A model generated the notes under the pieces. The model searched no databases, was not told the origin of the DNA, and saw nothing but the letters and a program-made list of their open reading frames with translations. Positions 8,555 to 43,889 of a DNA stretch of 64,000 nucleotides are shown here, piece after piece (position 1 is the first letter of the stretch; each line of letters begins with the position of its first letter). The DNA lies in NCBI GenBank assembly GCA_903873905.1, contig CAIQQJ010000057.1:8058-72057 (forward strand), written 5' to 3'. Made by a program: the position numbers and the translations under genes. Source of the stretch: an uncultured Flavobacteriales bacterium. Lineage in GTDB: Bacteria; Bacteroidota; Bacteroidia; Palsa-965.

Positions 8555-8565
8555 TTTAAAATTGC

Positions 8566-14271: not shown

Positions 14272-17200
14272 CTATGTTTTATAACGAAATCCGATCACAA
14301 GAACATCGTCCACCTGTTCCAATTTTCCTTTCCAGTCCAAAAATGATTTTTCAAAAAAATCATATTGGGCAGGCATTGGTTGTAAGTGAATTTCCTGCAG
14401 CATTTCCTGAAAACGTTTTACCATGAGTTTTTTCCCTCTGTCCCCTCCGAACTGATCGGCATAACCATCGGAAGTAAGGTAAAAACAATCGCCATCATTT
14501 AATTCTGTTTCGTGTAATGTGTAAAATCTTTCATCACCACCATGATCACCTCCAATTGAATATTTATTCGCAGGAAAAACAATCATTTGGTTTTTTCTCA
14601 TCATCCAAAGTGGACGATTCGCACCTGCATAACTTAATTTTTTCTTTTCGAAATCCACAAGGCACAGTGAAATGTCCATGCCATCGCGCGTTTCTCCACC
14701 CATATCCTGGTGCAATGCCTGTCGAATTCTAATATGTAACAGATTCAGAATCTTATCAGGAGATTCAATGTTTTTTTCCAAAACAATTTCATTCAAGAGC
14801 GTATTGCCAATCATGCTCATGAATGCACCTGGTACACCGTGGCCCGTGCAATCCACACAAGCGATCCAAGTTAAATTGCCACGTTTCACAAACCAATAAA
14901 AATCCCCGCTTACAATGTCGCGCGGATGAAATAGAACGAATGAATCAGGAAATGAATTATGTATTTCTGATTGCATTGGAAGAATGGCATGTTGAATTCT
15001 TTCAGCATAATGAATGCTGTCTTGAATACCCTTGTAGGCATATTCAAGTTCAGAATTCTGAATTTCTATTTTCACTTTTTGTTCAACCACCTCGGCTGTT
15101 CTTTCTTGTACAATAATTTCCAGCTTTTCCTTTTGTGTACGCAAGCGACGAGCACTCAAACGAACAGAAATGAAAATGATGCCGAGAAAAGCAAGAACAA
15201 ATAAAATGTAAGCCAATGTGGTTCTATACCAAGGAGGAAGAATGGTGAAAGTGTATGAACCTTCCTTGCTAGTTCGTCCAAGGAGATTGTACATTTTTAC
15301 TTTGAAAGTATATTTTCCTTCGGAAAGATTTGTGTAACTCTTCTCAGGATTTCCTTTTACTGGATACCAAGTAGTGTCAAACCCTTCGAGTTTGTACAAA
15401 TAATTTGTTTCACCATCCAATTCATAATAAGGGGCGGAAAATTTGAAAACAATCGAATTGAATTGATAGGGAATTGCCTGCGCATTGGTGAAATTGATGT
15501 TGTCGGAACCGAAATAGATCGTGGAATCTTTTCCAATTTTTACGGAAGAAATTATGGTGTTGAAAGGGATGTCGCTTGGAGGGTTGATGTTGCTGTTATA
15601 ACGCAACAGAATCGAATTTGATAAAAGCCAAGCAATTCCGTTTGGTTCAGAATAGACATATTGAAGTTCGTTTCCGCCGAAACAATATCCAATAGGCAAT
15701 TTTGTACGGAAGAATTTGTTTTTCGAATCCATTCCATAGAAGGTGATTAATGGAGAGATATTTGTTTGGAGAAATAAGGAATAATCAAAGGGTGGTTTTA
15801 ATCCAATAAAATTCCCGTCAAAAAGCAGGTCGAATATTTCCGGCGCATTGGAAAAACATTTTGATTTAGGATCAGTAGCTCGTGAAGGAATATATCTGTA
15901 AGCTTTTGTTCCACTGAAAAAATAAGTGGAATCACCGACAACAACCATATATGTTTGTTCCATCGGTAGTCCATTTGTTGTGTCATAACGTTGAATGGTA
16001 AAATTCGTGTCGTTGACATTGAACCGGGCATGGATGACCTCCTTGAATCGATTCGCACACCAGAAATCATATTGGTCATTTTTCTTCGAAGCATAATTGA
16101 TTCTGCCAATCCTGATAATATCTTCTCCAGGAATTTCATAGTGACGAATTAATTTCGGAAGGTGTCCGTCAATAAAACTGTAAACAGACATTCCGCCTTT
16201 TTCCATCGCAATGAATTCATCTGGATTAGGTGATTCACAAACACGGTTGATGTATTGGGACGAAAACTTTTCAATTTTGCCATTATGGGAATAAAAAAGC
16301 CCTTCGCTTGTGCTGATGAATAAATCGCCTTTTAATATGGTGAGGTTCCATACTTCTGTATGTGGAATTTCTTCCACCCTTTTAAATCGCAAATTGCTTG
16401 GAGAACCATTCACATTGGAACATTCAATGAATAATCCTTCCGTTGTACCTGCAAAAAGATTTCCCTGATATCGAATCAGCCATTGCAAGGTTCCGGAAAA
16501 ACCCGACTGGTCGCTGAAAAAAAGCGCAGGTGAATTGTAGCTGACCTTGCTGATTCCGTTATTATGCATCAGCCAAATGTTTTTCTGTCGATCAACAAAA
16601 ACATCTGCAATCGATTCATCACCGAGTCCAGATTTTTTATTCAGAATCTCAATCAGTTGAGCATTCCGATTATAAAATCCAATTCCAGATCGTGTAAAAA
16701 CAGCAAAGGTGGAATCATTCACCCATTCACAACCTAATGCACCATGATAGCTTGAAAATGTATCGGCTTTTTCCGACAATGTAGAAAACCAGGTGACCGA
16801 TCTTGAATTGAGTTTTGGATCCATTACAAAAAAGCCGCTGTCGCTGCTCACAATAAGACTCTTCTGATTTTTCCATGGAATCATTCCCAGAAGGCGGGTG
16901 TTTACAAATCGTTCACCACCCGGGCACAATTGCAATTTGTCATTGACAATTTCCATTAATCCAACGGTTCGTTGCCGCACGAATAATTTTCCGTTAGATT
17001 GAAACATCAATGCAAATCCCTTTTCGCGTGAAGCTTCAATAGTGCCAATTATTTTTTTCTCCTTGCAAATGAAAATACGTTCTGTTGATTGGAAATAGAT
17101 TTTTCCATTTGCACCAAAAACTTTCCAGATGTCTGAAAATGTTTTTTGGTTCGAATCGAGCGATGTGGTTAATGATACAAAACCCAATTTGCCATTAACA

Positions 17201-17529
17201 GAATCGCGTTGCAAATATCCGAACTCACCAACTGCGCCAACATAAATAATTCCAGTTGTGCTATCAATCATGATTTGTCGATTGGCAGAACCGGATTTTA
17301 CAAGAACATTTTGAAAAGTTGTACCGTCAAAAACAAAAATGGAAGACGTTCCTGCAAAATAGAGTAACCCATTTTTATCTTGCGTCGCCTGCCACATTTG
17401 GTTGAAGCCAAGGTAATCTTTCGGTGTATAATTTTTAATGTGATATCCCGAACGCTGCGCAAACACTTCCCTCCCTGAAAAAATCAGAAGGAAAACAAAC
17501 AACAAACTATTCTTGATTGCAGAATTCAT
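14272..17529 (-). CDS. Membrane sensor: signal peptide, Reg_prop beta-propeller + Y_Y_Y domain, TM, PP2C/SpoIIE-type phosphatase (paralog of 4113..7424)
   Basis: Y_Y_Y region YLYKLEGFDTTWYPV...LSEGKYTFKVKMYN. TM segment LAYILFVLAFLGIIFISV. PP2C motifs IHYAERIQHA, CVDCTGHGVPGAFMS, TSDGYADQFGG and QVDDVLVIGFRY. The start codon overlaps the upstream gene stop (ATGA). Confidence 0.8.
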   Translation of the reverse strand: MNSAIKNSLLFVFLLIFSGREVFAQRSGYHIKNYTPKDYLGFNQMWQATQDKNGLLYFAGTSSIFVFDGTTFQNVLVKSGSANRQIMIDSTTGIIYVGAVGEFGYLQRDSVNGKLGFVSLTTSLDSNQKTFSDIWKVFGANGKIYFQSTERIFICKEKKIIGTIEASREKGFALMFQSNGKLFVRQRTVGLMEIVNDKLQLCPGGERFVNTRLLGMIPWKNQKSLIVSSDSGFFVMDPKLNSRSVTWFSTLSEKADTFSSYHGALGCEWVNDSTFAVFTRSGIGFYNRNAQLIEILNKKSGLGDESIADVFVDRQKNIWLMHNNGISKVSYNSPALFFSDQSGFSGTLQWLIRYQGNLFAGTTEGLFIECSNVNGSPSNLRFKRVEEIPHTEVWNLTILKGDLFISTSEGLFYSHNGKIEKFSSQYINRVCESPNPDEFIAMEKGGMSVYSFIDGHLPKLIRHYEIPGEDIIRIGRINYASKKNDQYDFWCANRFKEVIHARFNVNDTNFTIQRYDTTNGLPMEQTYMVVVGDSTYFFSGTKAYRYIPSRATDPKSKCFSNAPEIFDLLFDGNFIGLKPPFDYSLFLQTNISPLITFYGMDSKNKFFRTKLPIGYCFGGNELQYVYSEPNGIAWLLSNSILLRYNSNINPPSDIPFNTIISSVKIGKDSTIYFGSDNINFTNAQAIPYQFNSIVFKFSAPYYELDGETNYLYKLEGFDTTWYPVKGNPEKSYTNLSEGKYTFKVKMYNLLGRTSKEGSYTFTILPPWYRTTLAYILFVLAFLGIIFISVRLSARRLRTQKEKLEIIVQERTAEVVEQKVKIEIQNSELEYAYKGIQDSIHYAERIQHAILPMQSEIHNSFPDSFVLFHPRDIVSGDFYWFVKRGNLTWIACVDCTGHGVPGAFMSMIGNTLLNEIVLEKNIESPDKILNLLHIRIRQALHQDMGGETRDGMDISLCLVDFEKKKLSYAGANRPLWMMRKNQMIVFPANKYSIGGDHGGDERFYTLHETELNDGDCFYLTSDGYADQFGGDRGKKLMVKRFQEMLQEIHLQPMPAQYDFFEKSFLDWKGKLEQVDDVLVIGFRYKT

Positions 17530-21870: not shown

Positions 21871-24027
21871 TCACTTTATTATTACCCCTGCCAACAAAAC
21901 ATCATCCACCTGATCGAGCTCCCCTTTCCAATCATCAAAAGTTTTTTCAATACTGTTTTTTTGTTGAGCTAGATTCTTGCCGCTGATTGTCAATAAGGTT
22001 TCCTTGAGTTGACTGTATTTGAATTTTTTCCCACTTGCGCCACCAAACTGATCGGCAAATCCATCTGTGAACATATAGAATGCATCAAGGTCTTTCAGTG
22101 GAATGGTATGAACGGTGAAAGGTTTCAAGTGTCCCTGAAAAACACCAACAGGTTGACGATCGCCTTTTATTTCGTGCATTTCTCCATTTGTAATATAATA
22201 CAACGGGTTATTTGCGCCAGCAAATTTTAACACATTATTTTCTTCATCAATGCAACAGAGGGATATGTCCATTCCGTCTTTTACACCTTTCATGGAGAGC
22301 AAATTTCCTTCGGGCCTATCAAAGTTGGTTTGTTTAAGTGCAGCAACAACCACATTTGCCATTTGTGTAAGAATTTCTCCTGGATCAGTAATGTGTTTTT
22401 CCTTTACGACTTCATTCAGTGCGGTATTCCCAATCAATGACATGAATGCGCCAGGAACGCCATGGCCTGTGCAGTCTACCACTGCCACAATTTTTGTTTT
22501 TCCGCTTTTCCCAATCCACCAGAAATCCCCACTAACAATATCTCTAGGACGGAAAAACACAAATGAACCAGGAAAAAGTTCGCGCATTTCTTCTTGTGTT
22601 GGCAGAACGGCGAATTGAATTCGTTTTGCATAGTTGATACTGTCGAGCATATCGTGATGTTGCTCGTCAACAATTTTTTTCTGCAAGGCAATTTCATTTT
22701 TCTGTTTTTCAAGAATAACATTTGCTTGTTTTGATTTTGTTGCATTTCTATAAATGACAAAAACAAGAATCACCAACAACACCAGAGCAGATCCCATAAA
22801 CAGATTTCTTCTTTTCTGTTCATCTAGCGCAACAGCTTTCAGATTGTTTTCCTTGGCAAGTGATTCAAAGGCTTTCTGTCGTCTCTCCGTATCAAATTTT
22901 GTATTTAGCTCATTTACCTGTTCGCTGTTTTTTTCATTAAAAATGCTGTCATTGATTTCATAATATTGTTTGTAATAATCCAATGCCTTTTTATCATCAC
23001 CTAGTTTCTCATATGCTTTGGAAAGCGATAGGTAATCAGACTTCATCATATCGCGATAGTCAAGTTCACGTGCGAGAGCGAGACTTTTGTTTTCGTACAG
23101 AATAGCCTGATCAAATTTTCCGTCTTCAATGTATAAATCTCCAAGATTATTGCAGATTAATGCAATCCCATTCTTGTCTCCAATTTTCTCACGAATTTCC
23201 AAAGCGCGATTGTAATAATCAATTGCTTTCGGAATGTTATTTTGATAGTTATAAATATTTGCAAGGTTATTCAGACAAACAGCAATGCCACGAAGATTGT
23301 TGCTTTTTGAAAAAAGCGCCAATGACTTTTCATAATAGTCAATTGCTTTTATGGTGTCCGTTAAATCCAAATACGTATTTCCAATTCGGGCATATGAATT
23401 TGCAACACGAGATTCATTACCTGCCTTTTGATATAAACGCAAACCAGTTTCTTCATAACGTAAAGCATCTTTATAATTTTTCTGATCATTATAAATGACA
23501 CCAATATTCAAATAAGAATTTGCGGCTTCTTCTACATTTTTTTCTCCAATATTGGAAGTCAATGCTTGATTGTAGGAAATCAAGGCTTTGGGATAATCAC
23601 CTTTCTCTCGATAAATGAATCCCAATTTGTTCATTGCAAAAATCACATTATTACTGTCTCCAACTGCTCTTGCCAATTTTATGGATTTATGAAAAATATT
23701 CAAAGCCGTATCACTTTCTCCGGAGTAATAAAGTGCGTACGCAAGATTATTCATCGCTTCAGATTTTTCGAGATTGTTCTTTCTTTTTGTTGCAATCTCA
23801 AGTGCTTGTTTCGCGAAATAGATAGATGATTTATTATCAGTTGGAGAAAGCTTCACACTGATTTGATTGCAAATTCGAAACTTTGCTGTGTCCGATCCTG
23901 CGTTTTTGACAAGTGAAAGCAAGGAATCGTTTTGGGAAATGGCAAGACGAGGAATTGCCAATAATAAAAAAAAGAAAAAATAAAATATTGCAGAAAATGG
24001 AATACGATTTGAAAGATGGAAATTCAT
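21871..24027 (-). CDS. Membrane sensor: signal peptide, TPR repeats, TM, PP2C/SpoIIE-type phosphatase (paralog)
   Basis: Many TPR units (ALNIFHKSIKLARAVGDSNN..., AIDYYNRALEIREKIGDKNG...). TM segment LFMGSALVLLVILVFVIY. PP2C motifs INYAKRIQFA, VVDCTGHGVPGAFMS, FTDGFADQFGG and QVDDVLLAGVII. Confidence 0.8.
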   Translation of the reverse strand: MNFHLSNRIPFSAIFYFFFFLLLAIPRLAISQNDSLLSLVKNAGSDTAKFRICNQISVKLSPTDNKSSIYFAKQALEIATKRKNNLEKSEAMNNLAYALYYSGESDTALNIFHKSIKLARAVGDSNNVIFAMNKLGFIYREKGDYPKALISYNQALTSNIGEKNVEEAANSYLNIGVIYNDQKNYKDALRYEETGLRLYQKAGNESRVANSYARIGNTYLDLTDTIKAIDYYEKSLALFSKSNNLRGIAVCLNNLANIYNYQNNIPKAIDYYNRALEIREKIGDKNGIALICNNLGDLYIEDGKFDQAILYENKSLALARELDYRDMMKSDYLSLSKAYEKLGDDKKALDYYKQYYEINDSIFNEKNSEQVNELNTKFDTERRQKAFESLAKENNLKAVALDEQKRRNLFMGSALVLLVILVFVIYRNATKSKQANVILEKQKNEIALQKKIVDEQHHDMLDSINYAKRIQFAVLPTQEEMRELFPGSFVFFRPRDIVSGDFWWIGKSGKTKIVAVVDCTGHGVPGAFMSLIGNTALNEVVKEKHITDPGEILTQMANVVVAALKQTNFDRPEGNLLSMKGVKDGMDISLCCIDEENNVLKFAGANNPLYYITNGEMHEIKGDRQPVGVFQGHLKPFTVHTIPLKDLDAFYMFTDGFADQFGGASGKKFKYSQLKETLLTISGKNLAQQKNSIEKTFDDWKGELDQVDDVLLAGVIIK

Positions 24028-31722: not shown

Positions 31723-32604
31723 TTACTGGAAGAACTCATACTCATACCTGTACTTTGCATATATTTTTCCGTATGGATTATAATCCGCCTTACCTACAAG
31801 TAAGCCATGCTTATTGTATTCATATGTTTGAGAATTCTGAACGGACTCGCCCGCGTAAAATGTTTTTTTGGCTAACAAATTGTAGTTCCCATACACATAT
31901 AAAATTTTGCTAAGAACAGAATTGTTTGCGTTGTGTTGAACCGCTTCAATCAAGTTATTGTTCTTATCATATTTATAAGCCCAGGAATAAAGAAGATCTC
32001 CAGTTGGAGAAAAGGCTTCCTCTTTTATTTTAGTATCATTTTCATACGAATACTTTCTTTTTTCACATAAGCCAGACGGCCAATACCAATCAAGTCCAAT
32101 CATTCTCCCCTCCTTATCATAAGAGGCAATATTGCGGTATTTATAAGTATTCACTGATAGAAAGTGAATTAATTCTATGCGGTTATTGTCACCATCATAA
32201 CTCCTTGTTTCTTTGTAGGCGCTACTATCTGCAATACTTCCTTTTGTAACGATTCGGTTACCGTTCAAGTCATATTCGCATGTAGTGGAACTTTCTGTAC
32301 TTCCATCAGGTGCGTATTTCGTTTCTCTTGACAGACACCCTTTGTTGTCAAAAAAGACAACACTACTGATATATTCTTTCTGATCCATTCCGGAATAAAC
32401 GCTGGTGGTGAACTCTGTCATTTTTTTCACCTTGTTTGACAACATTTTGTCCCGCTCATTTTCATCATCTGTTTTTTGATGATTCGAACAGGATGGGAAA
32501 ACGAAGAGGATTAGTAAGACATTTATAATGAATAATGTGGGGAATGAAAAAATTCTTTTTGCATGATCGGCAGGAGGGTTTTCAAATGCGGAAAGATTGT
32601 TCAT
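31723..32604 (-). CDS. YD-repeat-like hypothetical lipoprotein (the ORF opens at 32652; the likely start is the Met at 32604)
   Basis: Hydrophobic leader ending in FPSCS. Repeated YD-like units (YDLNGNRIV, YDGDNNRIE, YDKEGRMIG, YDKNNNLIE, YNKHGLLVG). Confidence 0.5.
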   Translation of the reverse strand: MNNLSAFENPPADHAKRIFSFPTLFIINVLLILFVFPSCSNHQKTDDENERDKMLSNKVKKMTEFTTSVYSGMDQKEYISSVVFFDNKGCLSRETKYAPDGSTESSTTCEYDLNGNRIVTKGSIADSSAYKETRSYDGDNNRIELIHFLSVNTYKYRNIASYDKEGRMIGLDWYWPSGLCEKRKYSYENDTKIKEEAFSPTGDLLYSWAYKYDKNNNLIEAVQHNANNSVLSKILYVYGNYNLLAKKTFYAGESVQNSQTYEYNKHGLLVGKADYNPYGKIYAKYRYEYEFFQ

Positions 32605-32629
32605 TTTATATTTCAATTTGTTTGAAAAA

Positions 32630-33334
32630 TTATTTTTGTTTTTCCGTGCCAAATCCAGTTGGAACCTTGAGGTCTTTTATGGTTGACATAAAAGTTCGCT
32701 TATCCACCCATTGAAATTCGCCATGCACGTTGAACACGTTTGTGTCGACAGGAGTGAATTCAACTTTTTCTGCTTGTAGCTGCATAGACATCCCATATTT
32801 GGTATGTGGATATTCCATAATCAGATAATGAAAATCTTTATAGGGACTTGCACCATAATTCATTCTCACTTTATCATAAAAATAGATATCAAATGTTTTA
32901 TTGTGGGTAATGTCATTTACAATTGCTTTTCGGCACTCTACACCTGCAATTGTTTTTTTTACATCAGTGGTTTCTATTTTATACAAAGGATCGTTTTCTT
33001 GGTCTTTTACATCTTCTGGAGTATCATGGAAAGCCATATTCTGTCCCATATCGTTAATCAGAAGTGAGGAATATTTTTTCAACTTATTGTCCAAAAGATT
33101 TACCACAACCAAAAGTCCCATGCCTCCGCTGGTTACAAAACAAACTTTGTCATCCTTAAACGCCAATTGCGTTTCTGTAGGAAGAAATGGAATGTTGTTA
33201 TAGGGGTTGTCGGCAGGGTAAGAAATTTTATAAACTACTTTGCCTTCAAAAATAGTAGGTACTGTTTCTTTTGTTGGACTGCAAGCGGAAATCACAGTGA
33301 CAAGAAGAATGAAAATAAATAATCTTGATTTCAT
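32630..33334 (-). CDS. Hypothetical lipoprotein
   Basis: MKSRLFIFILLVTVISACSP is a signal peptide with lipobox. No catalytic motif recognised. Confidence 0.5.
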   Translation of the reverse strand: MKSRLFIFILLVTVISACSPTKETVPTIFEGKVVYKISYPADNPYNNIPFLPTETQLAFKDDKVCFVTSGGMGLLVVVNLLDNKLKKYSSLLINDMGQNMAFHDTPEDVKDQENDPLYKIETTDVKKTIAGVECRKAIVNDITHNKTFDIYFYDKVRMNYGASPYKDFHYLIMEYPHTKYGMSMQLQAEKVEFTPVDTNVFNVHGEFQWVDKRTFMSTIKDLKVPTGFGTEKQK

Positions 33335-33514: not shown

Positions 33515-34780
33515 TTAGAAGTTTTGATTTGCTGCGCCCTTCAATTGAACGTGAGGAGTAACGTGGACAGTGTTTCCGATACTTGTTGTTTTCACGTAGT
33601 AGTCTGAACGGTTGAAATCAAATTGACCTTCGAAAACAGCATACTTATTATAGGAAGTGTGTGCAAGATTCCATGCAGTATTTACTCCTTGGAATTCAAA
33701 GTACATGTCAATCTGTTTGCTGATTTTTCTGCTGTATGGTCCTTGATAACCTGGTCCAACTCCGTTCCATGCATTGGCAGAGTCAATCGCACAAACAGTT
33801 ACACGAGGAGCTTCAATTTCATCGGCAGCACTTTTATAAAATGCTTTTAATGTTCCGTGTGCAACATATCCATTGCCGTATTTTTCTACGTGGCCTGTAT
33901 TGTCCCAACAATTAACATAATACCATGCTGTGTCAGTAATAGGAACGGCTCTGCAAGTTGCGCGTGTGCGTCCAGATGTGTCAACCTGTAATGTTTTTGG
34001 AACACAACCGCCGTATAGGGTATCTCTTTGTGCTTCAAATGTATTAATGTGTGAAAGTAAAACGTATCCTCTGATGGTATCATTAATTGGGTGAGCTTCA
34101 TCAAAATAGAAATTCAGAAGTCCCCATCCGTAATTTGGAAAGTTATTTCCAAATGTTGAAAATCCACCTGCTAATGTTGTTCCATTTATTCCTCCATTAC
34201 CTGCACCTGAATATTCTGCTGACCATTCAATTTTGCTGTGAATCTCAAAAGGAACATATGCTTTTGTTCCCATGCTACCAATTGTATCTGCTTTGATGAT
34301 TGTCAGAATTCTTGTTCCTGTTGGAGCTTGTGTTGCAAGCACAACGTTCTTAGTGACATTTGAATTAGCCAAAGCAACTACATAACCCAAGTCGGTTGGG
34401 TCTGTATGAAAATCAATACCATCAATTATTCTGAAATTTTGGTTTGCAGTATTGTACTTCGCGTATACATAATAGGTATTAGGAAGCAAATAAGGCAATT
34501 GGTAATTACCAAGACTATCGGCAATTGCTGTTGCAACTGGATTACCACTTACAGAAGTTCCAAGATAAAGTGAGATCAATGCACCTTTTGCTGTCACAAA
34601 GTTATTTGTGAAATCAGGGTAGGTACAATGTCCTGATATTGTTTTTCCGGAAATAGTGTCGTGAACTGTTACCACCACAATTTGTGTGTCCTTTTTGCAT
34701 TGTGGAAATAATAACACCAACATAAATGCTAAAATAGCAGTTGGCACTAAGAAGCGGATGGTTTTCGCGGTTGTTTTCAT
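33515..34780 (-). CDS. Hypothetical secreted/lipoprotein (421 aa)
   Basis: Signal peptide MKTTAKTIRFLVPTAILAFMLVLLFPQC. Contains a beta-sandwich-like N-terminal region (carboxypeptidase-regulatory-like). No CTD recognised. Confidence 0.45.
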   Translation of the reverse strand: MKTTAKTIRFLVPTAILAFMLVLLFPQCKKDTQIVVVTVHDTISGKTISGHCTYPDFTNNFVTAKGALISLYLGTSVSGNPVATAIADSLGNYQLPYLLPNTYYVYAKYNTANQNFRIIDGIDFHTDPTDLGYVVALANSNVTKNVVLATQAPTGTRILTIIKADTIGSMGTKAYVPFEIHSKIEWSAEYSGAGNGGINGTTLAGGFSTFGNNFPNYGWGLLNFYFDEAHPINDTIRGYVLLSHINTFEAQRDTLYGGCVPKTLQVDTSGRTRATCRAVPITDTAWYYVNCWDNTGHVEKYGNGYVAHGTLKAFYKSAADEIEAPRVTVCAIDSANAWNGVGPGYQGPYSRKISKQIDMYFEFQGVNTAWNLAHTSYNKYAVFEGQFDFNRSDYYVKTTSIGNTVHVTPHVQLKGAANQNF

Positions 34781-34974
34781 GGTTTTAAATTTAATTTTTA
34801 ATTTTTTGTGTTACAGGAGCTAGTTGTTTGGTGGTTGTCAATAATGTTTATAGATTTTCTTAATGAAGACTAATGGACAGTATTAACTTTTATGCTTTTT
34901 AGGTTCAATTGATTTGAGAAACAAATTTTCTACTGCACAAAATTGTAGATATCCCCTTATTTGGAGAATGATAT

Positions 34975-35030
34975 TCAAAAGGTTTCATAAAGGCAGTTGG
35001 CTAAAAAAAAAACGGCAGATGTCTGTTTCA
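34975..35030. promoter_or_regulatory. Second copy of the conserved ~55-nt motif, upstream (minus-strand sense) of 33515..34780
   Basis: See 31573..31627. Confidence 0.3.
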
Positions 35031-35063
35031 AGAAAAGCGAAACGAGAAGTGTTGCGTGATTTC

Positions 35064-35783
35064 CTATGAATTGATGGCGATAAACGGTGCAACAACGTGC
35101 TGCAACTTTTCCAAGTTCAATAAATTAATATTTTGTCCGGATGCAGTAATGAGTTTCTCCTCCTCAAATTCTGATAATTGTTTTACCAAGCGGTCAACAG
35201 AAATCCCAGCAATTGAGGCCAGGTCTTTTCGGGAGATCTTTATATTAAGTGTGCTGTTGTTTTTTTCAAGTCCAAATTCATTGATCATCATTAAAAGGCA
35301 ATCGGCTGTTTTCTCACGTACATTCATTTCAGCCATATTTCGAAGTCGCCTTTCGGTTTCATTCAGCTGAATGATGTAAGTCCAAAGAATCTTCAAATGC
35401 AATTGGTGATTTTCTTGAAGCAACTGGATAAAAACACTACTGGGGATAAAATGTAGGAGTGAATCCTCTAATGCAGTTGCACAAAGAACATAGTTTGAAT
35501 TTTGAATCGCTCCTCTAAATCCAATAATACCACCTTCCTTTGAAATGGAAACGATAGGATTGTTTGAATGTATGCCATCTTTCCAAAGTTTCACTTTCCC
35601 TTTTTCAATCAAATAAACGAAATGAGCGGGTTGAAAATCAAAAAAGATGGCTTCATCCTTTTTAAAGAAATGGTGTTTTGAGTTTTGTTGAAGAATTTGC
35701 TTCTGTTTTGTTGTACAGAACTCCTCCAATAAGGGTATTTTATTTATGACATCTGTGCTAATAATACCTGGCGGGGTTTTCAT
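35064..35783 (-). CDS. Crp/Fnr-family transcriptional regulator (cNMP-binding + HTH)
   Basis: cNMP-binding beta-roll region (...DEAIFFDFQPAHFVYLIEKGKVKLWKD...GGIIGFRGA). C-terminal HTH SRKDLASIAGISVDRLVKQLSEFEEEKLI. Confidence 0.8.
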   Translation of the reverse strand: MKTPPGIISTDVINKIPLLEEFCTTKQKQILQQNSKHHFFKKDEAIFFDFQPAHFVYLIEKGKVKLWKDGIHSNNPIVSISKEGGIIGFRGAIQNSNYVLCATALEDSLLHFIPSSVFIQLLQENHQLHLKILWTYIIQLNETERRLRNMAEMNVREKTADCLLMMINEFGLEKNNSTLNIKISRKDLASIAGISVDRLVKQLSEFEEEKLITASGQNINLLNLEKLQHVVAPFIAINS

Positions 35784-35989
35784 ATTAGAAAGAAATATTT
35801 ATTGAGGTTAATTTGTCCTTAAAAATAACCTAAAAAAAGTAGAGTAATAATAATTTATATAGGGGATTTGAGTAATTAATTTAAAATCCCCCATAACACT
35901 GACAATTATCAATTCCGAGCATTTTGTTGTTTATATTTCAGTGGAACTTTCCTGAAAATTTAAATCGGAAAGACAAAGTTTAAGCACTT

Positions 35990-36125
35990 CATGCGTGTGG
36001 GGAATAATTATTCTTTTGAATAATCGAACGGGTTGTTGTTGTTGAGCAAAAGATTTTTGCTGTGAATGAAATCAAGCGTAGGTAAAATAGTAGTCGGATG
36101 TCAATTGATGTTTTTCATTCGTAAA
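35990..36125 (-). pseudogene. Remnant of the 5' end of a TPR-TM sensor gene (homologous to the N-terminus of 37396..39159), left between the two Crp paralogs
   Basis: 36010-36035 aattattcttttgaataatcgaac matches 39013-39037 (the coding sequence INSRLFKRIIDS of 37396..39159). Both segments end ...g(t)tttcattcgtaa at 36108-36125 and 39128-39145. No long ORF remains. Confidence 0.4.
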
Positions 36126-36258
36126 ACTATTGTAAATAAAATGTCCTGATTTTGCACAAGAGTTTCCTATTGTTACCCACAACAGGGCTTACTTCATCAC
36201 CTACTTCAATACGGATGAAGTACCAACCGAAAAAGACGAATTCCTGGCGAAAGATTTC

Positions 36259-36978
36259 CTAAGAATTATTATCAATATAGGGAGCAATAACTTCCTGTAA
36301 CTTTTCCTTGTTCAGTAAATTAATATTTTGTCCGGATGCATTAATGATTTTCTCCTCTTCAAATTCTGACAATTGTTTTACCAGGCGGTCAACAGAAATT
36401 CCTGCAATGGCAGCCAAATCTTTCCGGGAGATTTTTATATTAAGCGTGCTTTTGTTTTTTTCTAATCCAAATTCATTAATCATCATTAAAAGACAATCGG
36501 CTGTTTTCTCTCTTACATTCATTTCCGACATATTTCGGAGGCGTCTTTCTGTTTTTTCCAATTGCGTGATGTAATACCAAAGAATCTTGAAATGTAATTC
36601 ATGGTTTTCCTTAAGAACCTGAATGAAAATATTTTTTGGAATAAAATAGAGGAGCGAATCTTCCAATGCGGTAGCCGAAAGTAGATAGTTTGATTCTTGA
36701 ATGGCGCCCCTAAATCCGAAAATGTGGCCTTCTTTTGCAAGAGAAACTATGGTGTGGTGCGAATGAATGCCGTCTTTCCAAAGTTTTACTTTTCCTTTTC
36801 CAATCAAATAAACGAAATGCGCAGGTTGGAAATCAAAAAAGATGACTTCATCCTTTTTAAAAAGATGATGTTTTGAACTTTGTTGAAGCAATTTTTTCTG
36901 TTTTGTTGTGCAGAATTCTTCTAACAAAGGAATTTCATTTATGAAATCCTCGCTAATCGTTAATAGGGGAGTTTTCAT
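36259..36978 (-). CDS. Crp/Fnr-family transcriptional regulator, tandem paralog (~85% aa identity to 35064..35783)
   Basis: Same length (239 aa). Near-identical HTH SRKDLAAIAGISVDRLVKQLSEFEEEKII. Confidence 0.8.
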   Translation of the reverse strand: MKTPLLTISEDFINEIPLLEEFCTTKQKKLLQQSSKHHLFKKDEVIFFDFQPAHFVYLIGKGKVKLWKDGIHSHHTIVSLAKEGHIFGFRGAIQESNYLLSATALEDSLLYFIPKNIFIQVLKENHELHFKILWYYITQLEKTERRLRNMSEMNVREKTADCLLMMINEFGLEKNKSTLNIKISRKDLAAIAGISVDRLVKQLSEFEEEKIINASGQNINLLNKEKLQEVIAPYIDNNS

Positions 36979-37395
36979 ATTAATGGGAATTATTTATAAA
37001 AATAAGATTGTTCTAAAAATCAGTTAGTCAAAAGTAGATTTATTTTAGTTTATAAAAGGAAATTGAAACAAGAAGAAATTCGAATTCACGTAAAACTGAC
37101 GAGTGTTTGTTTTTTAATATGTTCTTTATCATCAATTCTGTAAGTATTCTATTTTCTTTCATTGTTCTATCCGCAAAAAATTGGATACCTGATTCGCCTT
37201 GGAATTATTATGTTTATTTTATCTACTGACTGTCCTCCCCAAGTGTTAACCCAAAATCGTGGTCACATTTATGAATGTTGGGTTATTTCACAAAAGCCTT
37301 TGACCTGGAATGGCTCCAAGAAAAGTATTCTTTTCTAAGAAATCAATTTAAGTAGAGGCGGCGTATAAACTTGGACTTGTCGCAAATTGGAATTA

Positions 37396-39159
37396 CTATT
37401 TCTTCAAACGATTAATATTTTTCCCAATATAAATATCAGTAGGTAAAAGTGACTGCTGAATTCTTTTCGCATAATGAATGGAGTCTAGAATTTCCTTTTG
37501 TTTTATTTCCACCAACTCTTTCTGATTTTCAACTTCCAATTTTTCTTTTGAAATGAGTTTGTTTGCTTTTCTTTTTGACTGATAAGCAAATCCAAGAATA
37601 AGTAGGATAACGCATATTGCACCTATCCCTCCAACAAGACTATTTCTTATAACTTTATTTTTTTCAGAAGTTTGTTTTTCTCTTTCATTTGACAATTGCT
37701 GTTTCAATCCAAATTCACTTTTCAACTTCATTTCATCATATTCGGACTGAAGGGAAAGCATTTCTGATTTGTTGTTTGCCTTATCAACAGAATCTTTAAG
37801 AGCAGTGCGCCGATCAAGATAAAAATAAGCCAGTTTCCAGTTTCCCATTCCTTCATATCCGTTATTTAAAAGGAAATAAATACGTTCCGTATAGATTATA
37901 TAGTGATCCACTTTCTCGATTTCCAGGGCACGAAGCGCATAAGAAACCACGAGGTCATATTTTTTTTCTTCCAAAGCGATTGTTGCCAGTGACATGTAGG
38001 AATACAATTCACCTTCTCTATTTCCACCTGCCAAACGGAGTTTAAGTGCGATCTCCTGATAATATTTTGCGGAATCTATCATTCCGGCACTCAATAAATA
38101 TTCGCCAAAATTTCCAAATTGCAAAGCAGAAACTTTTTTCCTTTCGAGAAAATCATAATGCATCGCTTTTCTCATGTTTGCAATGGCAGAGTCAAATTTC
38201 CCCTGTATTGAAAATAGATTGGCGCGTGTTGAATAGGAATGAGTGATTCTATAATTTGAATGGATGGCCATTGAGAGTTTCAAATTCATTGCATTCATTT
38301 CTTCCGCCTGCTTGTAATTTTCAATCTCAGCATAAAGCATTGCCAAATTACCAAGTGCCGAAAGCCATCCTGTTGTATCGTGTATTTGCTCTGAAATCTG
38401 AATTGCTTCCAGCAAAGGAGGTTGAGCGATGCGCATTCTCCTGTTGTCATTATTGTATAAACCTTTGAATTGAAGAACACGCTCATAAAGAAAAAGGGAG
38501 CCAGAACGTTTCGAATAAGTCTCGGCAGAATCAATATATGAGAATATTTTTTGTTTTGTTTCCAGTGAGGGATTATCACCATATAAATAATATACACGAC
38601 TCCAACGAAACCAAATCACAGCTTCTGCAATTACTGATTTGCTTTTTCTAGCGGCAGTTATTGCCCGGGTGAATAATTCTTCAATCGTCTTGGCGTCCAA
38701 ATCCTTTTTTATTGAAGTCAACACAATTGTTTTCAATAGGAGGCACCTCGACAATAGGGAGAATTGTTTTTCCTTTTCAGCTGATGCAATTCCGGCATCG
38801 ATGGCAGTCATTGCCCCTGGAAAATCCTTTGCCAGGAAGCATTTCAACATTTTCTGCTGCAACGAAATTATTCCGAAAGAATTAGGATACAATAATTTTG
38901 CAGTCTTCTCCTGCTGGGCAATCAAGGACTGGGCATACGCTGAATCGCCATTGGCGGCATCTTGAAAATTATGCTCTATCAGCCAAAGTTTCCTTTCTAC
39001 ATTACTACAGGAGTCAATTATTCTTTTGAATAATCGACTGTTTATTGTTTGCTGAGCGAAAGCTGTTTGTTCAAGGGCAAAAACCGAGAGCAGACAAAGT
39101 AGCAATCGTATTGAAACGGAAGTTTTCATTCGTAATGCTAGTGAAAGTGAAATATCCAA
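37396..39159 (-). CDS. TPR-like periplasmic domain + TM sensor protein whose PP2C phosphatase domain is cut off after its first ~20 residues (degenerate paralog / possible pseudogene)
   Basis: Signal peptide. TM segment LVGGIGAICVILLILGFAY. Coiled coil. Ends ...ILDSIHYAKRIQQSLLPTDIYIGKNINRLKK-stop, i.e. only the first conserved PP2C motif is present; no DCTGHG, DGYADQFGG or DD motifs. No ORF of 60 aa or more in the 417 nt downstream (37395 to 36979). Confidence 0.65.
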   Translation of the reverse strand: MDISLSLALRMKTSVSIRLLLCLLSVFALEQTAFAQQTINSRLFKRIIDSCSNVERKLWLIEHNFQDAANGDSAYAQSLIAQQEKTAKLLYPNSFGIISLQQKMLKCFLAKDFPGAMTAIDAGIASAEKEKQFSLLSRCLLLKTIVLTSIKKDLDAKTIEELFTRAITAARKSKSVIAEAVIWFRWSRVYYLYGDNPSLETKQKIFSYIDSAETYSKRSGSLFLYERVLQFKGLYNNDNRRMRIAQPPLLEAIQISEQIHDTTGWLSALGNLAMLYAEIENYKQAEEMNAMNLKLSMAIHSNYRITHSYSTRANLFSIQGKFDSAIANMRKAMHYDFLERKKVSALQFGNFGEYLLSAGMIDSAKYYQEIALKLRLAGGNREGELYSYMSLATIALEEKKYDLVVSYALRALEIEKVDHYIIYTERIYFLLNNGYEGMGNWKLAYFYLDRRTALKDSVDKANNKSEMLSLQSEYDEMKLKSEFGLKQQLSNEREKQTSEKNKVIRNSLVGGIGAICVILLILGFAYQSKRKANKLISKEKLEVENQKELVEIKQKEILDSIHYAKRIQQSLLPTDIYIGKNINRLKK

Positions 39160-39199
39160 TTTTGAACAAAATGTTTTTTATTCTTACCCAAAACTATTA

Positions 39200-39976
39200 T
39201 TATTCAATCACCAATTTCTTCGCAGGTGAATTTCCGATCCGAACAAAATAAATTCCTGATGGCCCCTGGGAAAGATCAATTATTTGATCAGTTGAAATTT
39301 CTTTTTGAAGAATTAATTCTCCCAACATGTTTTCCACTCGAAGCATTTCAGGATTTTGCAATGGAGAAAAAAATTGAATGGAAATGTTTCCATTGGAAGG
39401 ATTTGGGAAAATGTTCCAACCTACATTGGAATTGAATTCGTTCATTCCAGTGACCATTATTGTTTGACATGCTGTATCAAAACATCCATTTGCATCCACC
39501 ACAAACAAACATACCGTTTCATTTCCTGATGAAGAATAAGTGTGCGAAGGAAATTGTTGTTGAGAAGTTCCTGCATCACCGAAATTCCAAAGCCATGATG
39601 CTATGCCCCCAGTGCTGAGATCCAAAAATGAAACGTTATTGTTTCCATTAAGTGTAAATGTAAACGCTGCAACAGGATTTGGAAAAACCGTTACAACACC
39701 ACTTGAGGTTGTGGTTCCACTTGCAAGTGTTTCGATTAGCGTTACGGTATAAGTTGCAGGAATGGTATAACAATGCATTGGACTCTGCAAGTTGGAAGGT
39801 GCGGACGCATCACCAAAATCCCAAAGCCAAGTAAGAACGTTAGGCGTCTGATCTTGGAAGCCTGCACACACTGGACTACATCCGCTGGATGGGGAAATGG
39901 TAAATGTCGGTTGTGAAAATCCTTGAATGGAAAATCCTGCCAAAAAAACCAAGAGGCACGTAATTTGCTTTTTCAT
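39200..39976 (-). CDS. T9SS cargo protein with PKD domain(s) and type-A C-terminal sorting domain
   Basis: PKD motif WLWNFGDAGTSQQQFPSHTYSSSGNETVCLFVVDANGC. CTD FPNPSNGNISIQFFSPLQNPEMLRVENMLGELILQKEI...GIYFVRIGNS. Confidence 0.7.
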   Translation of the reverse strand: MKKQITCLLVFLAGFSIQGFSQPTFTISPSSGCSPVCAGFQDQTPNVLTWLWDFGDASAPSNLQSPMHCYTIPATYTVTLIETLASGTTTSSGVVTVFPNPVAAFTFTLNGNNNVSFLDLSTGGIASWLWNFGDAGTSQQQFPSHTYSSSGNETVCLFVVDANGCFDTACQTIMVTGMNEFNSNVGWNIFPNPSNGNISIQFFSPLQNPEMLRVENMLGELILQKEISTDQIIDLSQGPSGIYFVRIGNSPAKKLVIE

Positions 39977-40094
39977 AATTGAAAATAGTTATAAAAATTA
40001 AATTCTTATTGGTTCATGCAAAAGTGAGTATTCTTTCCTGTAAATAAAATGCGATGGTTTAATGTTCTTACGTGTTCAAACGGAGGTTGACACA

Positions 40095-41846
40095 TCAAAA
40101 CGTTTTATTGTTTTTATTTTTATTCAGACGAATTAATGTTTTTTCAATATATTTTTCAGTAGGTAAAAGTGATTGTTGAATTCGTTTTGCGTAATGAATG
40201 GAGTCAATAATTTCCTTTTGTTTTTCCTCCACGATTTCCTTTTGCATGGCGATCTCCGTGTTTTTCTGTTCGAGCAGGATGTTTGATTTATTTTTGATTC
40301 TGTAACTACGGAAAACAAAAACAAGAATCAATAAAATAGAAAGGATTCCAAACAATAATAGGTTTCGAATAAATGAATTTTTCTGAGCTTGTTTTTCGCT
40401 TTCTATTTTGGAAATATTTTGTTTGAAATCGAATTGTTCTTTCATCTGTTTCTTTTCATATGCGGACCGGATATCCCCAATTTTTGTTTTGTTACTAAGG
40501 CTGTCAAGCGAATCAATAGCAAGCTGATGTTTTTTCATGTAAAGAAAGGCCTTCTCCCAATTCTTCAGTCCTTCATATCCTTGGTAAAGATTCAGGTAGA
40601 TATTGTCGTCATAAATTCCAAAATGTCGATCGTTTTCAATTGCCAATGCCTTTTCTCCATAACTCACCGCTTCTTGAAAATTCTTTTCCTTGATGGATAT
40701 TCTACCCAATGAATTGTAAGAATAAAGTTCTCCTTCTTTATTTTTAAATTTAATTCTTTCTTCCAAAGCAATTTTCTGATAATATTTTGCACTGTCAATA
40801 AAACCAAATCCCAAAAGCAATTCTCCAAAATCACCCTTAACTAGCGGGTCATTGTAATTGTTTTTTGCAAGGTCATTGTACAAAATGCTTTTCCTTCCAT
40901 ATTCCAATGCTTTTAGGGTATCCTTGATACTTGCATAATCAAACATAACTTGATGGCAATAATTACTCAAATAGCCATAGCTTTTCAATTTTTCAGCGAG
41001 CTGAATTCCTTTCAAATTATATTTAACGGCTTCCTGATAATTTTCAACAGCTCCATAAATGCCACCGAGTAAGGAATAGGCTGTCATAAGTGATGTGGTG
41101 TCAGATATTTTCTCTGCTAGCGAAAGCATGGGAAGAATAAGTTCTTCAGCTTTGCTGTTATTTTTCTCCAAGTAATAGGCGCGAGCCTCTGAAATTGTAC
41201 TCTTCTCGAAAAAGAAAGTCATCCCATGTCTTTGAAAAATGGCGATAGCAGAATCAGAAAACAGGAATGCATCATTTTGCATATTTTCAAATTCTTTTTT
41301 TGATCTTTCATTGAAACGATATTTCGAATAAACTAACCAGTACGAGCCTTCCAACATCCAATTACCTTGATCATGTGCTAGTTTAATGGAAGATTTAAAA
41401 AATGTTTCTATTGCAGGATGTTCTGCTTCATCATGAGCACTAAAAAAAATGGCAGCACGTGAATAATCAAGCATAGCTTTTTTTGCCAACAGCTCTTTCT
41501 TGTTTACAATTTGTGAAAGTGAATCAATAATCGTTCGTGCTGCTTGATCATCTCCTCTCATATGAAAAAGCAAAGCCTGCTGTTCAGCGAGCGTGTATTT
41601 TTGAAAAGCTGGATTGATTTTCTTTTCAACTTCATTGTATTGGGCACACCATTTTGAAAATTGTGTTGTATCCGTTGCACACGCATCAATAAGTGCTGCC
41701 TCAATGAGATAAAGTTTTTCACGCGGAGCTTTGGTCGTATCAATTAGGCGCCCGTAAAGTCGCTGCAACGATGTGTGTTGTGCAGATGCCTGAATGCAAA
41801 TGAGGCAAAAGAAAAGATGGGCAAGAAGTAGGGTTCTTGTTTTCAT
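40095..41846 (-). CDS. Second TPR-like + TM sensor protein with truncated PP2C stub (paralog of 37396..39159)
   Basis: TM segment LLLFGILSILLILVFVF. Ends ...IIDSIHYAKRIQQSLLPTEKYIEKTLIRLNKNKNNKTF-stop. The 3'-terminal ~100 nt are near-identical at DNA level to the 3' end of 37396..39159 (cagtaggtaaaagtga(c/t)tg(c/t)tgaattc...taatgaatggagtc). Confidence 0.65.
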   Translation of the reverse strand: MKTRTLLLAHLFFCLICIQASAQHTSLQRLYGRLIDTTKAPREKLYLIEAALIDACATDTTQFSKWCAQYNEVEKKINPAFQKYTLAEQQALLFHMRGDDQAARTIIDSLSQIVNKKELLAKKAMLDYSRAAIFFSAHDEAEHPAIETFFKSSIKLAHDQGNWMLEGSYWLVYSKYRFNERSKKEFENMQNDAFLFSDSAIAIFQRHGMTFFFEKSTISEARAYYLEKNNSKAEELILPMLSLAEKISDTTSLMTAYSLLGGIYGAVENYQEAVKYNLKGIQLAEKLKSYGYLSNYCHQVMFDYASIKDTLKALEYGRKSILYNDLAKNNYNDPLVKGDFGELLLGFGFIDSAKYYQKIALEERIKFKNKEGELYSYNSLGRISIKEKNFQEAVSYGEKALAIENDRHFGIYDDNIYLNLYQGYEGLKNWEKAFLYMKKHQLAIDSLDSLSNKTKIGDIRSAYEKKQMKEQFDFKQNISKIESEKQAQKNSFIRNLLLFGILSILLILVFVFRSYRIKNKSNILLEQKNTEIAMQKEIVEEKQKEIIDSIHYAKRIQQSLLPTEKYIEKTLIRLNKNKNNKTF

Positions 41847-41903: not shown

Positions 41904-43889
41904 TTAAATCCTGATGCCTATTACACAAACATCATCCAATTGTTCAAGGTTACCTTTCCAATCCTCGAAAGTTTTATCCAAAACATTTTTCTGTTCTGAC
42001 ATTTTCATTGCACTGATCGCGAGCAGCTTTTCCTCAAGTTGTTTGTATTTGAATTTTTTCCCTTTCTCTCCACCGAATTGATCCGCATAGCCATCTGTGA
42101 AACAATATAATGCATCGCCTTTTTGCAATTGAAAATCACGTTTACCAAAATCCTTCAAGTCTCCGCTATGAACACCCACGGGCATTTTATCGGCTTCAAG
42201 AAAAATCACTTCATTGCCTGCTACTGATTTGCGAATAATAACTGCAGGATTATTCGCTCCTGAAAATTCAATTGTATTGTTTTTTTTGTTCCATGAAAAA
42301 ATTGAAATGTCCATTCCATCACGTTGTCGGATTTCCCTTCCACGCTGTTCAAGCGCATGAATTATTTTTTCACGAAGCAGATTTAAAATAAGTCCAGTGG
42401 AAAATATTTTCTTGCCGGAAACAATTTCATCGAGAAAACTCATCCCCAAAACACTCATGAATGCGCCTGGAACGCCATGACCTGTACAATCGGCAGCACA
42501 CCAAACGGCGTACGCATTGGACGAATATGCCCAATAGAAATCTCCGCTCACCACATCGCGCGGTTTGAAAAGAATAAAATATTCAGGAACTATTTCTTCC
42601 CAAGTTTCCTTTTGTGTCAACAGTGCCGATTGAATTCGCTCAGCATAATTGATGGAATCGGTAATAGATTTGTTTTTTTCTTCAACGATAATTTTCTGTT
42701 TTTCAATAATCATTTTCTGTCGTTGCGTAATGCGAAAACGATTGAGAATAAAACCTAGAAACAATAGCACCATCACCAATCCTGCCGTTACCGCGAGGAT
42801 GATAAGCTTTTGTTTTTTCTTTTCGGATTCATCTATTGCACTTTGTTTTTCATGGTCTTTACGAAGTGCGAGTTTTTCATTCTCATATTGATTTTGCATT
42901 TCAATACGCTCCATGCTTCTTTTGGTTTCCTCATTGTTCAGGGAATCCCTTGCCTTGATGAACTCCTTGTAAAACTTGAGCGCCTTCATGCCGTCATTTT
43001 TCTTGGAATAAACTTCTGAAAGCGTTTCACAGATTTCCTCCACACCAACCAAATCGCCAATTTCTTTTGAAATGCCCAATGCTTCCAATTCATATTGCTC
43101 CGCTTTGGGAAGGTCCTTCATTTCCAGATACAGTGCACCGATATTGGCAAGTGAAGTGGAAACGCCAATGCGGTTATTGATTTCCCTCCGCAAATCAAGT
43201 GAGAGCAAATAATATTTCAAGGCACGGTCATAATCTTTTTCCGACTGGTATAAAGTGCCAAGATTGTTGAAGGTGTTTGAGATTCCTTTCTTGTTGGTTC
43301 GAGGGTTTTCATACTCCAGTGCCTGTTTGTAATATTTCAATGCTGTTGAAGTGTCGCCAAGAACCTTGTACACAATTCCAATATTGTTGAGAGATCCGGA
43401 AATTCCTGTGGAATCTTTTTGTTGTTGCTGAATAGCCAATGCCTTTTTATAATATTCCAGCGCCTTTGTATTGTTATTCTGGTACCAATAAATGATCCCG
43501 ATGGAATTGTAACAGAGCGATGTTTTCTTTTGCGATTGCATGCTGTCGGCAACATTCAGTGCGACGAATTTCATCTCCAACGCTTTCGTGTAATCGCCTA
43601 GGTCGAGAAAAATATTTCCAAGACTAAATGCGGATTCATAAATTCCTGACTTGACATTTGCTGCACGGTAAAGACGATAGGCCAATTCCGCATTCATTTT
43701 GCCATTCATGGCATTATCCGCATCTACATATTCATTGGACAATTGCAAATAATATTTTGCCTTGGTCGAATCAATTTTGGTTGCAGCAATGAGATTTTGC
43801 AGCGAATCAATCTTGTCCTTTTGCGCATGGGAAACTGAACACGTGCAGGACGCGATAAAAAAAAGAAAAAGCTGAATGACTTTTTTCAT
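41904..43889 (-). CDS. Membrane sensor: signal peptide, TPR repeats, TM, PP2C/SpoIIE-type phosphatase (paralog)
   Basis: TM segment LIILAVTAGLVMVLLFLGFIL. PP2C motifs INYAERIQSA, AADCTGHGVPGAFMS, FTDGYADQFGG and QLDDVCVIGIRI. Confidence 0.8.
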   Translation of the reverse strand: MKKVIQLFLFFIASCTCSVSHAQKDKIDSLQNLIAATKIDSTKAKYYLQLSNEYVDADNAMNGKMNAELAYRLYRAANVKSGIYESAFSLGNIFLDLGDYTKALEMKFVALNVADSMQSQKKTSLCYNSIGIIYWYQNNNTKALEYYKKALAIQQQQKDSTGISGSLNNIGIVYKVLGDTSTALKYYKQALEYENPRTNKKGISNTFNNLGTLYQSEKDYDRALKYYLLSLDLRREINNRIGVSTSLANIGALYLEMKDLPKAEQYELEALGISKEIGDLVGVEEICETLSEVYSKKNDGMKALKFYKEFIKARDSLNNEETKRSMERIEMQNQYENEKLALRKDHEKQSAIDESEKKKQKLIILAVTAGLVMVLLFLGFILNRFRITQRQKMIIEKQKIIVEEKNKSITDSINYAERIQSALLTQKETWEEIVPEYFILFKPRDVVSGDFYWAYSSNAYAVWCAADCTGHGVPGAFMSVLGMSFLDEIVSGKKIFSTGLILNLLREKIIHALEQRGREIRQRDGMDISIFSWNKKNNTIEFSGANNPAVIIRKSVAGNEVIFLEADKMPVGVHSGDLKDFGKRDFQLQKGDALYCFTDGYADQFGGEKGKKFKYKQLEEKLLAISAMKMSEQKNVLDKTFEDWKGNLEQLDDVCVIGIRI

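Follow-up and report, generated by a model that had tools for sequence, protein, structure and literature searches.

Why do two closely similar genes for Crp/Fnr-family regulators, here termed Crp1 and Crp2, stand in tandem in the genome of an uncultured Flavobacteriales bacterium, and why does the 475-nt spacer between them resemble the beginning of a third gene nearby, which encodes a TPR membrane protein (the "sensor")? The locus lies within a stretch of 64,000 nt (the window) from contig CAIQQJ010000057.1 of assembly GCA_903873905.1. Very probably, a block of ~3.0 kb was duplicated in tandem long ago, ~1.9 kb was then deleted from one copy, the relic of that copy stayed behind as dead spacer DNA, and two Crp genes were kept. 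The features that bear on this reading, which include a neighbouring gene with a PKD domain and a type IX secretion system (T9SS) sorting domain, are, from the upstream end of the minus strand:

39200-39976, minus strand: gene for a 258-aa protein with PKD and T9SS C-terminal sorting domains (Pfam), whose last ~75 nt (39200-39273/6) are the start of the proposed duplicated unit
70 nt in the original (intact) copy: intergenic DNA between the PKD/T9SS gene and the sensor gene
37396..39129, minus strand: intact short-form TPR membrane protein ("sensor"), 577 aa from the ATG at 39129, with signal peptide, TPR repeats, one transmembrane segment and the end DSIHYAKRIQQSLLP plus tail, and no SpoIIE domain
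37067..38950, minus strand: intact-copy segment of ~1.9 kb without downstream counterpart, comprising 329 nt of intergenic DNA and sensor codons ~60-577 (the difference of the two homology blocks)
36979..37066, minus strand: 88-nt 5' region of Crp2, with a Bacteroidetes-type -7 box TACTTTTG at 37036-37029
36259..36978, minus strand: Crp2, Crp/Fnr-family regulator of 239 aa, the upstream and more conservative copy
36253..36258, minus strand: duplication junction GAAATC, 6 nt common to the 3' side of both Crp stop codons (three-way comparison)
36188..36252, minus strand: relic of the 3'-terminal ~75 nt of the PKD/T9SS-tail gene (C-terminal sorting domain), from alignment and translations
36119..36187, minus strand: relic of the PKD/T9SS-sensor intergenic region, in which the counterpart of the sensor's -7-like box has decayed to CTGTTGTG
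35941..36118, minus strand: relic of the 5' end (~59 codons) of the TPR membrane protein gene, with the relic ATG at 36118-36116
36006..36027, no strand: perfectly conserved 22-nt core with the palindrome ATTATTC-TTTT-GAATAAT, 22/22 identical to 39016-39037
35872..35940, minus strand: 69 nt without demonstrable homologue, likely the scar of an internal deletion (local alignment against shuffled sequence)
35784..35871, minus strand: 88-nt 5' region of Crp1, 64% identical, ungapped, to the Crp2 5' region at 36979-37066
35064..35783, minus strand: Crp1, Crp/Fnr-family regulator of 239 aa, the downstream and faster-evolving copy

Both Crp open reading frames (ORFs) carry a cNMP_binding domain (PF00027, 49-57 bits) and an HTH_Crp_2 domain (PF13545, 38-41 bits), all above the gathering cut-offs, which bears out the initial annotation of the pair as tandem 239-aa paralogs of the Crp/Fnr type. 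The identity of ~85% given there is too high: the measured values are 81% for the proteins and 79% for the DNA. The repeat pairs 35058-35871 with 36253-37066 (79% over 815 nt, no gaps, offset 1195) and thus spans the ORF together with 88 nt upstream and 6 nt downstream. A continuation of the upstream homology beyond 88 nt, into 35872-35940, was rejected, as the scores there are at the level of shuffled sequence. The two genes are separated by a synonymous divergence (dS) of 1.03 and a non-synonymous divergence (dN) of 0.11, a dN/dS ratio of 0.11, with identity down to 64% at third codon positions and 53% at fourfold-degenerate sites, and with mismatches at codon positions 1/2/3 of 15/7.5/36%. 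Both copies are under purifying selection.

The spacer, compared by BLASTN with the whole window, gives a single significant non-self match, from 36006-36246 to 39016-39258 (70% identity over 247 nt, E=4e-19), and the similarity to the sensor region therefore reaches beyond the short strings by which it had first been recognized. Of the first of these strings, the 22-mer AATTATTCTTTTGAATAATCGA, the window contains exactly two copies (36006-36027 and 39016-39037), where chance would give 0.02. The second, a 14-mer quoted as a shared end (GTTTTCATTCGTAA), is found as such at 39122-39135, and its spacer counterpart at 36111-36124 differs by one mismatch (TTTTTC...). Toward the sensor interior, ungapped homology extends to ~35941 with 34/66 positions identical, a level attained at only 3 of ~63,900 window offsets, the self-match included; on the other side the homology reaches 36252. 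The full tract at 35941-36252 (~320 nt) is collinear with 38951-39273 at an offset of ~3010 and 61% identical over 322 alignment columns. Three elements follow one another in it as they do in the intact copy: ~75 nt from the 3' end of the PKD/T9SS-tail gene, the intergenic DNA, and sensor codons 1 to ~59. The initial annotation had described ~135 nt of sensor homology (35990-36125); that homology is real, but its extent was underestimated and the PKD/T9SS 3' end was missed. Its caveat, that the shared strings might be a dispersed repeat, does not apply, and the tract does not behave as a mobile element either: within 64 kb it is present in two copies only, both in this locus, and among the loci fetched for comparison it is carried by those of the same species only. 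As to the start of the intact gene, the ORF finder begins the sensor with a TTG at 39159, whereas the ATG at 39129 yields 577 aa with a typical signal peptide and is the start chosen by gene callers on two other assemblies.

The junction itself is resolved to the nucleotide. Past Crp2, the Crp 3' flank turns into the interior of the PKD gene between 36253 and 36252 (TAGGAAATC/TTTCGCC, the slash marking the boundary here and below), and the left end of the relic begins exactly where the Crp repeat ends. The three sequences to be compared read ...TCATAGGAAATC/ACGCAAC... 3' of Crp1, ...TCTTAGGAAATC/TTTCGCCAGGAATTC... 3' of Crp2, and ...AATAATTGATC/TTTCCCAGGGGCCATCAGGAATTT... in the interior of the intact PKD gene. 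The trinucleotide ATC at 36253-36255 is present in both parental sequences and constitutes a microhomology with GATC/TTTCC in the PKD gene. Such a join of unit end to unit start at ATC is diagnostic of a tandem duplication and is what illegitimate recombination is expected to produce. The unit of the intact copy extends from 39273-39276 to 36253, about 3.02 kb, and ends 6 nt past the Crp stop codon. Outside it, the PKD gene is intact on the upstream side, and the flank downstream of Crp1 is unique, the homology stopping there; no mobile-element gene, tRNA or repeat is found at the unit borders. The locus thus has both features by which a tandem duplication is recognized, namely two collinear blocks in direct orientation and a novel junction between unique outer flanks. 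In sum, the earlier proposal of a duplicated unit of sensor and Crp gene that lost its inner sensor is supported, with the unit boundary moved to a point inside the PKD/T9SS gene (~39273-39276).

The level of divergence is even across the unit: the 88 nt upstream of the Crp genes are 64% identical, the relic 58-61%, and the Crp third positions and fourfold sites have the values given above. This similarity throughout the block fits a single old event in which the whole block was copied. We propose that a block of ~3.0 kb, reaching on the minus strand from ~75 nt before the PKD/T9SS stop codon, through the sensor gene and its downstream intergenic DNA, to 6 nt past the Crp stop codon, would have been duplicated in tandem by illegitimate recombination at the 3-nt ATC microhomology. 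The downstream copy would subsequently have lost ~1.9 kb (sensor codons ~60-577 and ~330 nt of intergenic DNA), or this part may never have been copied. What was left, namely the end of the PKD gene, the intergenic DNA and the start of the sensor gene, would thereby have been joined to the 88-nt promoter-proximal stretch of the second Crp gene. The two Crp copies would then have been retained under purifying selection, their DNA-binding domains staying nearly identical, their effector domains diverging, and each probably being served by its own promoter.

The relic is disrupted throughout. From its ATG (36118-36116) the reading frame stays open for five codons, with a stop at codon 6, and is broken again by a 1-nt insertion that shifts it and by further stops; the PKD fragment is out of frame, with about 9 nt of deletions plus a 1-nt deletion. 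The spacer contains no ORF of at least 60 aa, the longest having 36 aa, and a tblastn search with the sensor protein does not detect the relic. Mismatches between relic and intact sensor at codon positions 1/2/3 are 28/32/42%, which is nearly flat in this small sample of about 60 codons; the relic copy thus lost its coding constraint at an early stage. Homology to a functional gene with a disrupted frame, and a lost codon-position bias, are the two marks of a pseudogene relic, and both are seen here. In addition, the Bacteroidetes-type -7 box of the sensor, TAGTTTTG at 39196-39189, has only the altered sequence CTGTTGTG as its relic counterpart. The relic is most likely non-functional spacer DNA. 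Direct repeats, a novel microhomology junction, and loss of the redundant gene to a fragment with stops, frameshifts and no codon-position bias are what tandem segmental duplication followed by pseudogene decay leaves behind. Gene relics in bacterial intergenic DNA have been described for Rickettsia and Mycobacterium leprae; the present one differs in that it lies on a free-living-type Bacteroidota chromosome (with T9SS cargo and housekeeping genes), has survived to a dS of about 1, and holds a perfectly conserved 22-nt palindrome.

This architecture is found, without indels and at 99.5-99.7% identity, in all available assemblies, namely the NCBI metagenome-assembled genome GCA_947475455.1, the Logan assemblies of two sequencing runs and several ENA metagenome assemblies, compared over up to 10.6 kb (2.6-8.0 kb for the shorter contigs). 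Since the structure recurs in independently assembled contigs from several samples, it is no assembly artefact. We note four single-nucleotide polymorphisms (SNPs) within 50 nt (35892, 35918, 35935 and 35941) that set the window apart from each of the six other assemblies of the species; they fall within the unassignable part of the spacer or at its margin. At 8.4 per kb, SNPs are denser in the spacer than in any other of those features of the locus that hold more than one SNP; the corresponding value for a 118-nt intergenic region with one SNP is 8.5.

Several observations weigh against this history. For ~320 nt of dead DNA in a bacterial genome, survival to a dS of about 1 is long, and the 69 nt at 35872-35940, whose local alignment score is no better than that of shuffled sequence, can be assigned to neither side. 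Uniform neutral decay would not be expected to leave an identical run of at least 22 nt: simulations give P = 0.0007 for the background identity, 0.002 for the overall one and 0.035 for a generous 70%. The searches found no relative that carries just one unit, or both units in full, the available sequences being either of the same species (>=99.5% identity) or at most 56% identical. The nearest Crp homologues outside the species are 52-56% identical and stand in a different gene context, the protein database searched with Crp holds nothing between 81% and 56% identity, and a scan of genome contigs with Crp2 gave one match at 55%, the others being at 35% or below over substantial length. A metagenome scan with the sensor likewise returned the same species and distant proteins only. 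Finally, duplication in situ and acquisition of a diverged second unit cannot be told apart.

The least unlikely of the alternatives is that the relic was kept as a working cis-element, its 22-nt palindrome being an operator to which a dimeric regulator, perhaps the Crp proteins, would bind. A site both inside the sensor 5' end and ~230 nt upstream of Crp1 would couple sensor and Crp1 to one regulator. The identical run is a perfect 7+4+7 palindrome within a relic that is otherwise ~58% identical, and its 5-N4-5 geometry is reminiscent of FNR sites. The palindrome has longer arms in the intact gene, 12 bp around a 4-nt loop (39012-39039; RNA folding energy dG -13.1, z -6.4). Crp1 and Crp2 have the same recognition-helix region and differ at 6/72 positions of the helix-turn-helix (HTH) domain as a whole. 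Coding constraint (RLFKRII) can account for the conservation of the palindrome in the intact gene, but not in the dead copy. Against an operator stand the absence of a third copy at <=2 mismatches within 64 kb, the absence of the motif from the loci of distant Crp relatives, and its distance from the putative promoters (about +155 from the sensor -7 box and about -180 from that of Crp1); moreover, at a background identity of 70% the run is only marginally unusual. Two distant Crp relatives, one of them in three assemblies, have another palindrome in common, TTGGCATATGCCTGT. We therefore consider it unlikely that a pseudogene fragment was recruited as regulatory DNA, its palindromic core serving as a putative operator in the live sensor gene and in the dead copy. 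The palindrome as a regulon motif was rejected, no further copies being found in the window or in the relatives' loci.

Two side observations concern these palindromes. The extended form in the intact sensor gene is unusual for a coding region:

39012..39039, no strand: 28-nt near-perfect palindrome within sensor codons ~31-40 (folding)

The 15-nt element TTGGCATATGCCTGT (core GGCATATGCC) is identical in distant Crp orthologues (locus L001, 7234-7248; L026/L027, 7479-7493; L028, ~6052-6066), where it lies beside the Crp gene in intergenic DNA, toward the adjacent operon or a divergent Crp paralogue. It is not present in the window, and is a candidate operator for the Crp clade.

Somewhat less probable still is a xenologous origin of the tandem copy, by which a diverged PKD-sensor-Crp segment from a related lineage would have integrated beside the resident one, with one sensor deleted afterwards. 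The copies are indeed very divergent (dS about 1), yet the databases hold no intermediate relatives, and the age of the event can therefore not be calibrated. A junction of unit end and unit start at a 3-nt microhomology between unique outer flanks is, however, the product of tandem duplication in situ, and both the borders, devoid of mobile-element gene, tRNA or repeat, and the even divergence across the unit speak against integration. Two separate events, with Crp alone duplicated first and a ~320-nt PKD/sensor-boundary patch inserted into the spacer later, are very improbable: the patch is indeed short, and at its right end (about 35941) no join to the Crp upstream block can be recognized, but the left end of the patch would have to match the Crp repeat end to the nucleotide, its divergence equals that of the Crp silent sites, and the scheme is less parsimonious.

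Crp1 and Crp2 differ at 8% of residues in the HTH domain and at 22% in the sensory/effector domain, with no difference in the recognition-helix region, and relative to five outgroups Crp1 has accumulated 13-16 lineage-specific changes and Crp2 5-7. It is a reasonable inference from these sequences that both regulators recognize one DNA motif and answer different, or differently tuned, signals. Like other members of the Crp/Fnr superfamily (CRP, FNR, NtcA, FixK, FtrB), they combine an N-terminal effector domain of the cNMP-binding type with a C-terminal HTH_Crp_2 domain in ~240 aa, and relatives too have several paralogues per locus (three in L026). Unlike the named subfamilies, they score only 35-51 bits on the NCBIfam equivalog models, for which the cut-offs are 211-300, and therefore belong to none of them; for instance, the model for FNR (NF008365) gives 42 bits against a cut-off of 228, and that for CRP, the cAMP receptor protein (NF008732), 50 bits against 266. 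They also differ from FNR in lacking the N-terminal cysteine cluster for [4Fe-4S], having a single conserved N-terminal cysteine (C23).

Each Crp gene probably has a separate promoter, and the 88-nt region would hold that of Crp1. A TAnnTTTG box lies 51-58 nt upstream of the Crp2 ATG, and the equivalent place in Crp1 reads TACTTTTT. The scan for the Bacteroidetes -7 motif returned 3 matches where roughly 4 are expected by chance (an estimate), and the matches are suggestive by position only, lying ~50-60 nt before the start codons of the sensor gene and of Crp2. Scans for sigma-70 promoters and intrinsic terminators gave no enrichment over shuffled sequences, and Rfam covariance models had no match at E<=1 in 34500-40300. 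The folding of the whole spacer (z -2.75) is due to a few local hairpins. One of these, at 35860-35895 (minus strand), has 12 bp, contains G+C (dG -14.2, z -2.6), and straddles the boundary between the unassigned segment and the Crp1 upstream block, its 5' arm lying in 35872-35940. It could act as a terminator or insulator against read-through from Crp2, which would have lost its native 3' flank in the duplication.

A probable functional tie between the Crp regulators and the sensor, proposed in the initial annotation, does not find support. Co-duplication shows adjacency only, and the Crp genes of the relatives examined adjoin other genes. We compared the neighbourhoods of five more distant Crp relatives (38-55% identity): in L001, L025 and L026-28 the Crp gene adjoins a Fer4 (NrfC-like)/NrfD/cytochrome c operon, in L029 it adjoins a molybdopterin oxidoreductase, and the contig of L030 is too short for the neighbourhood to be read. 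None of the five neighbourhoods has a TPR membrane protein beside Crp. From this gene order, the conserved partner of the Crp clade looks like a respiratory or redox operon; the Fer4/NrfD/cytochrome c operon is not in the 64-kb window. Within the locus, the 417-nt gap between sensor and Crp2, with its promoter-like box, argues against obligatory co-transcription. In L026, three Crp/Fnr-family genes (2213-2905, 6615-7403 and 7907-8641) surround one Fer4/NrfD/cytochrome c operon, so that regulators of this type have multiplied near their target locus more than once.

The sensor belongs to a group of membrane proteins that is also represented immediately upstream:

43889-41904, minus strand: TPR+SpoIIE protein, 661 aa (ORF list, Pfam)
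41846-40095, minus strand: TPR membrane protein without SpoIIE, 583 aa (ORF list, Pfam)

The label "truncated", which the initial annotation had attached to such proteins, is misleading. The 577- and 583-aa proteins are 34% identical over their whole length and share the same end point. Among 135 representatives of the top homologue clusters in the HMMER search that bear the motif DSIxYAxRIQxxLLP, 110 end 12-25 residues past it with the conserved tail PTEKYIxKxLxRLxK; the remaining 25 run on for ~230-257 residues, and every long form tested by Pfam has a SpoIIE domain there. Neither the 577- nor the 583-aa protein has a Pfam match to SpoIIE, and a SpoIIE remnant was looked for in the DNA downstream of either short-form gene, with none found. 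The short forms are thus, by sequence, a widespread family with a separate, uncharacterized architecture and not recently broken genes. With the TPR-transmembrane-SpoIIE phosphatases of Bacteroidota (PP2C type, RsbU/SiaA-like), of which the neighbouring 661-aa protein and P0073 were compared, they have in common a TPR ectodomain, a single transmembrane segment, a coiled coil and DSIxYAxRIQxxLLP; they differ in stopping 12-25 residues past that motif, without a phosphatase domain. The phosphatase-less form keeps the juxtamembrane helix. A literature search on TPR/SpoIIE membrane proteins in Bacteroidetes returned no papers. Six SpoIIE-domain paralogues are encoded in the window (4002-7424, 10067-12163, 12184-14268, 14272-17529, 21871-24027 and 41904-43889), 37-45% identical to each other in the phosphatase domain; together with the two short forms within 64 kb, they constitute a marked local expansion of a signalling family.

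On the other side of the locus, three genes follow 3' of Crp1 on the minus strand (33515-34780, 32630-33334 and 31723-32652), of which the first is:

34780-33515, minus strand: protein without family match, 421 aa (Pfam)

Each of their products has an N-terminal hydrophobic, signal-peptide-like segment; none has a significant Pfam match, and the single one tested has no NCBIfam match. The three genes are kept in all assemblies of the species and are the nearest candidates as Crp1 targets, though nothing ties them to Crp1.

For annotation, it follows that the spacer is not to be mined for genes, and the locus is a warning against inferring function from co-duplication. It would raise a new biological question only if the conserved palindrome proves to be a binding site, in which case expression of a duplicated Crp gene would be tied to the same regulator as a short-form TPR membrane protein. 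The type of event is ordinary; its footprint is unusually well preserved and is documented here at unusually fine resolution. The locus thereby provides a clean case, resolved to the nucleotide, of the growth of a regulator family in an uncultured lineage of Bacteroidota: a tandem duplication arises at a microhomology, the redundant neighbour is lost, and two regulators with a common DNA-binding domain and diverging effector domains are kept.

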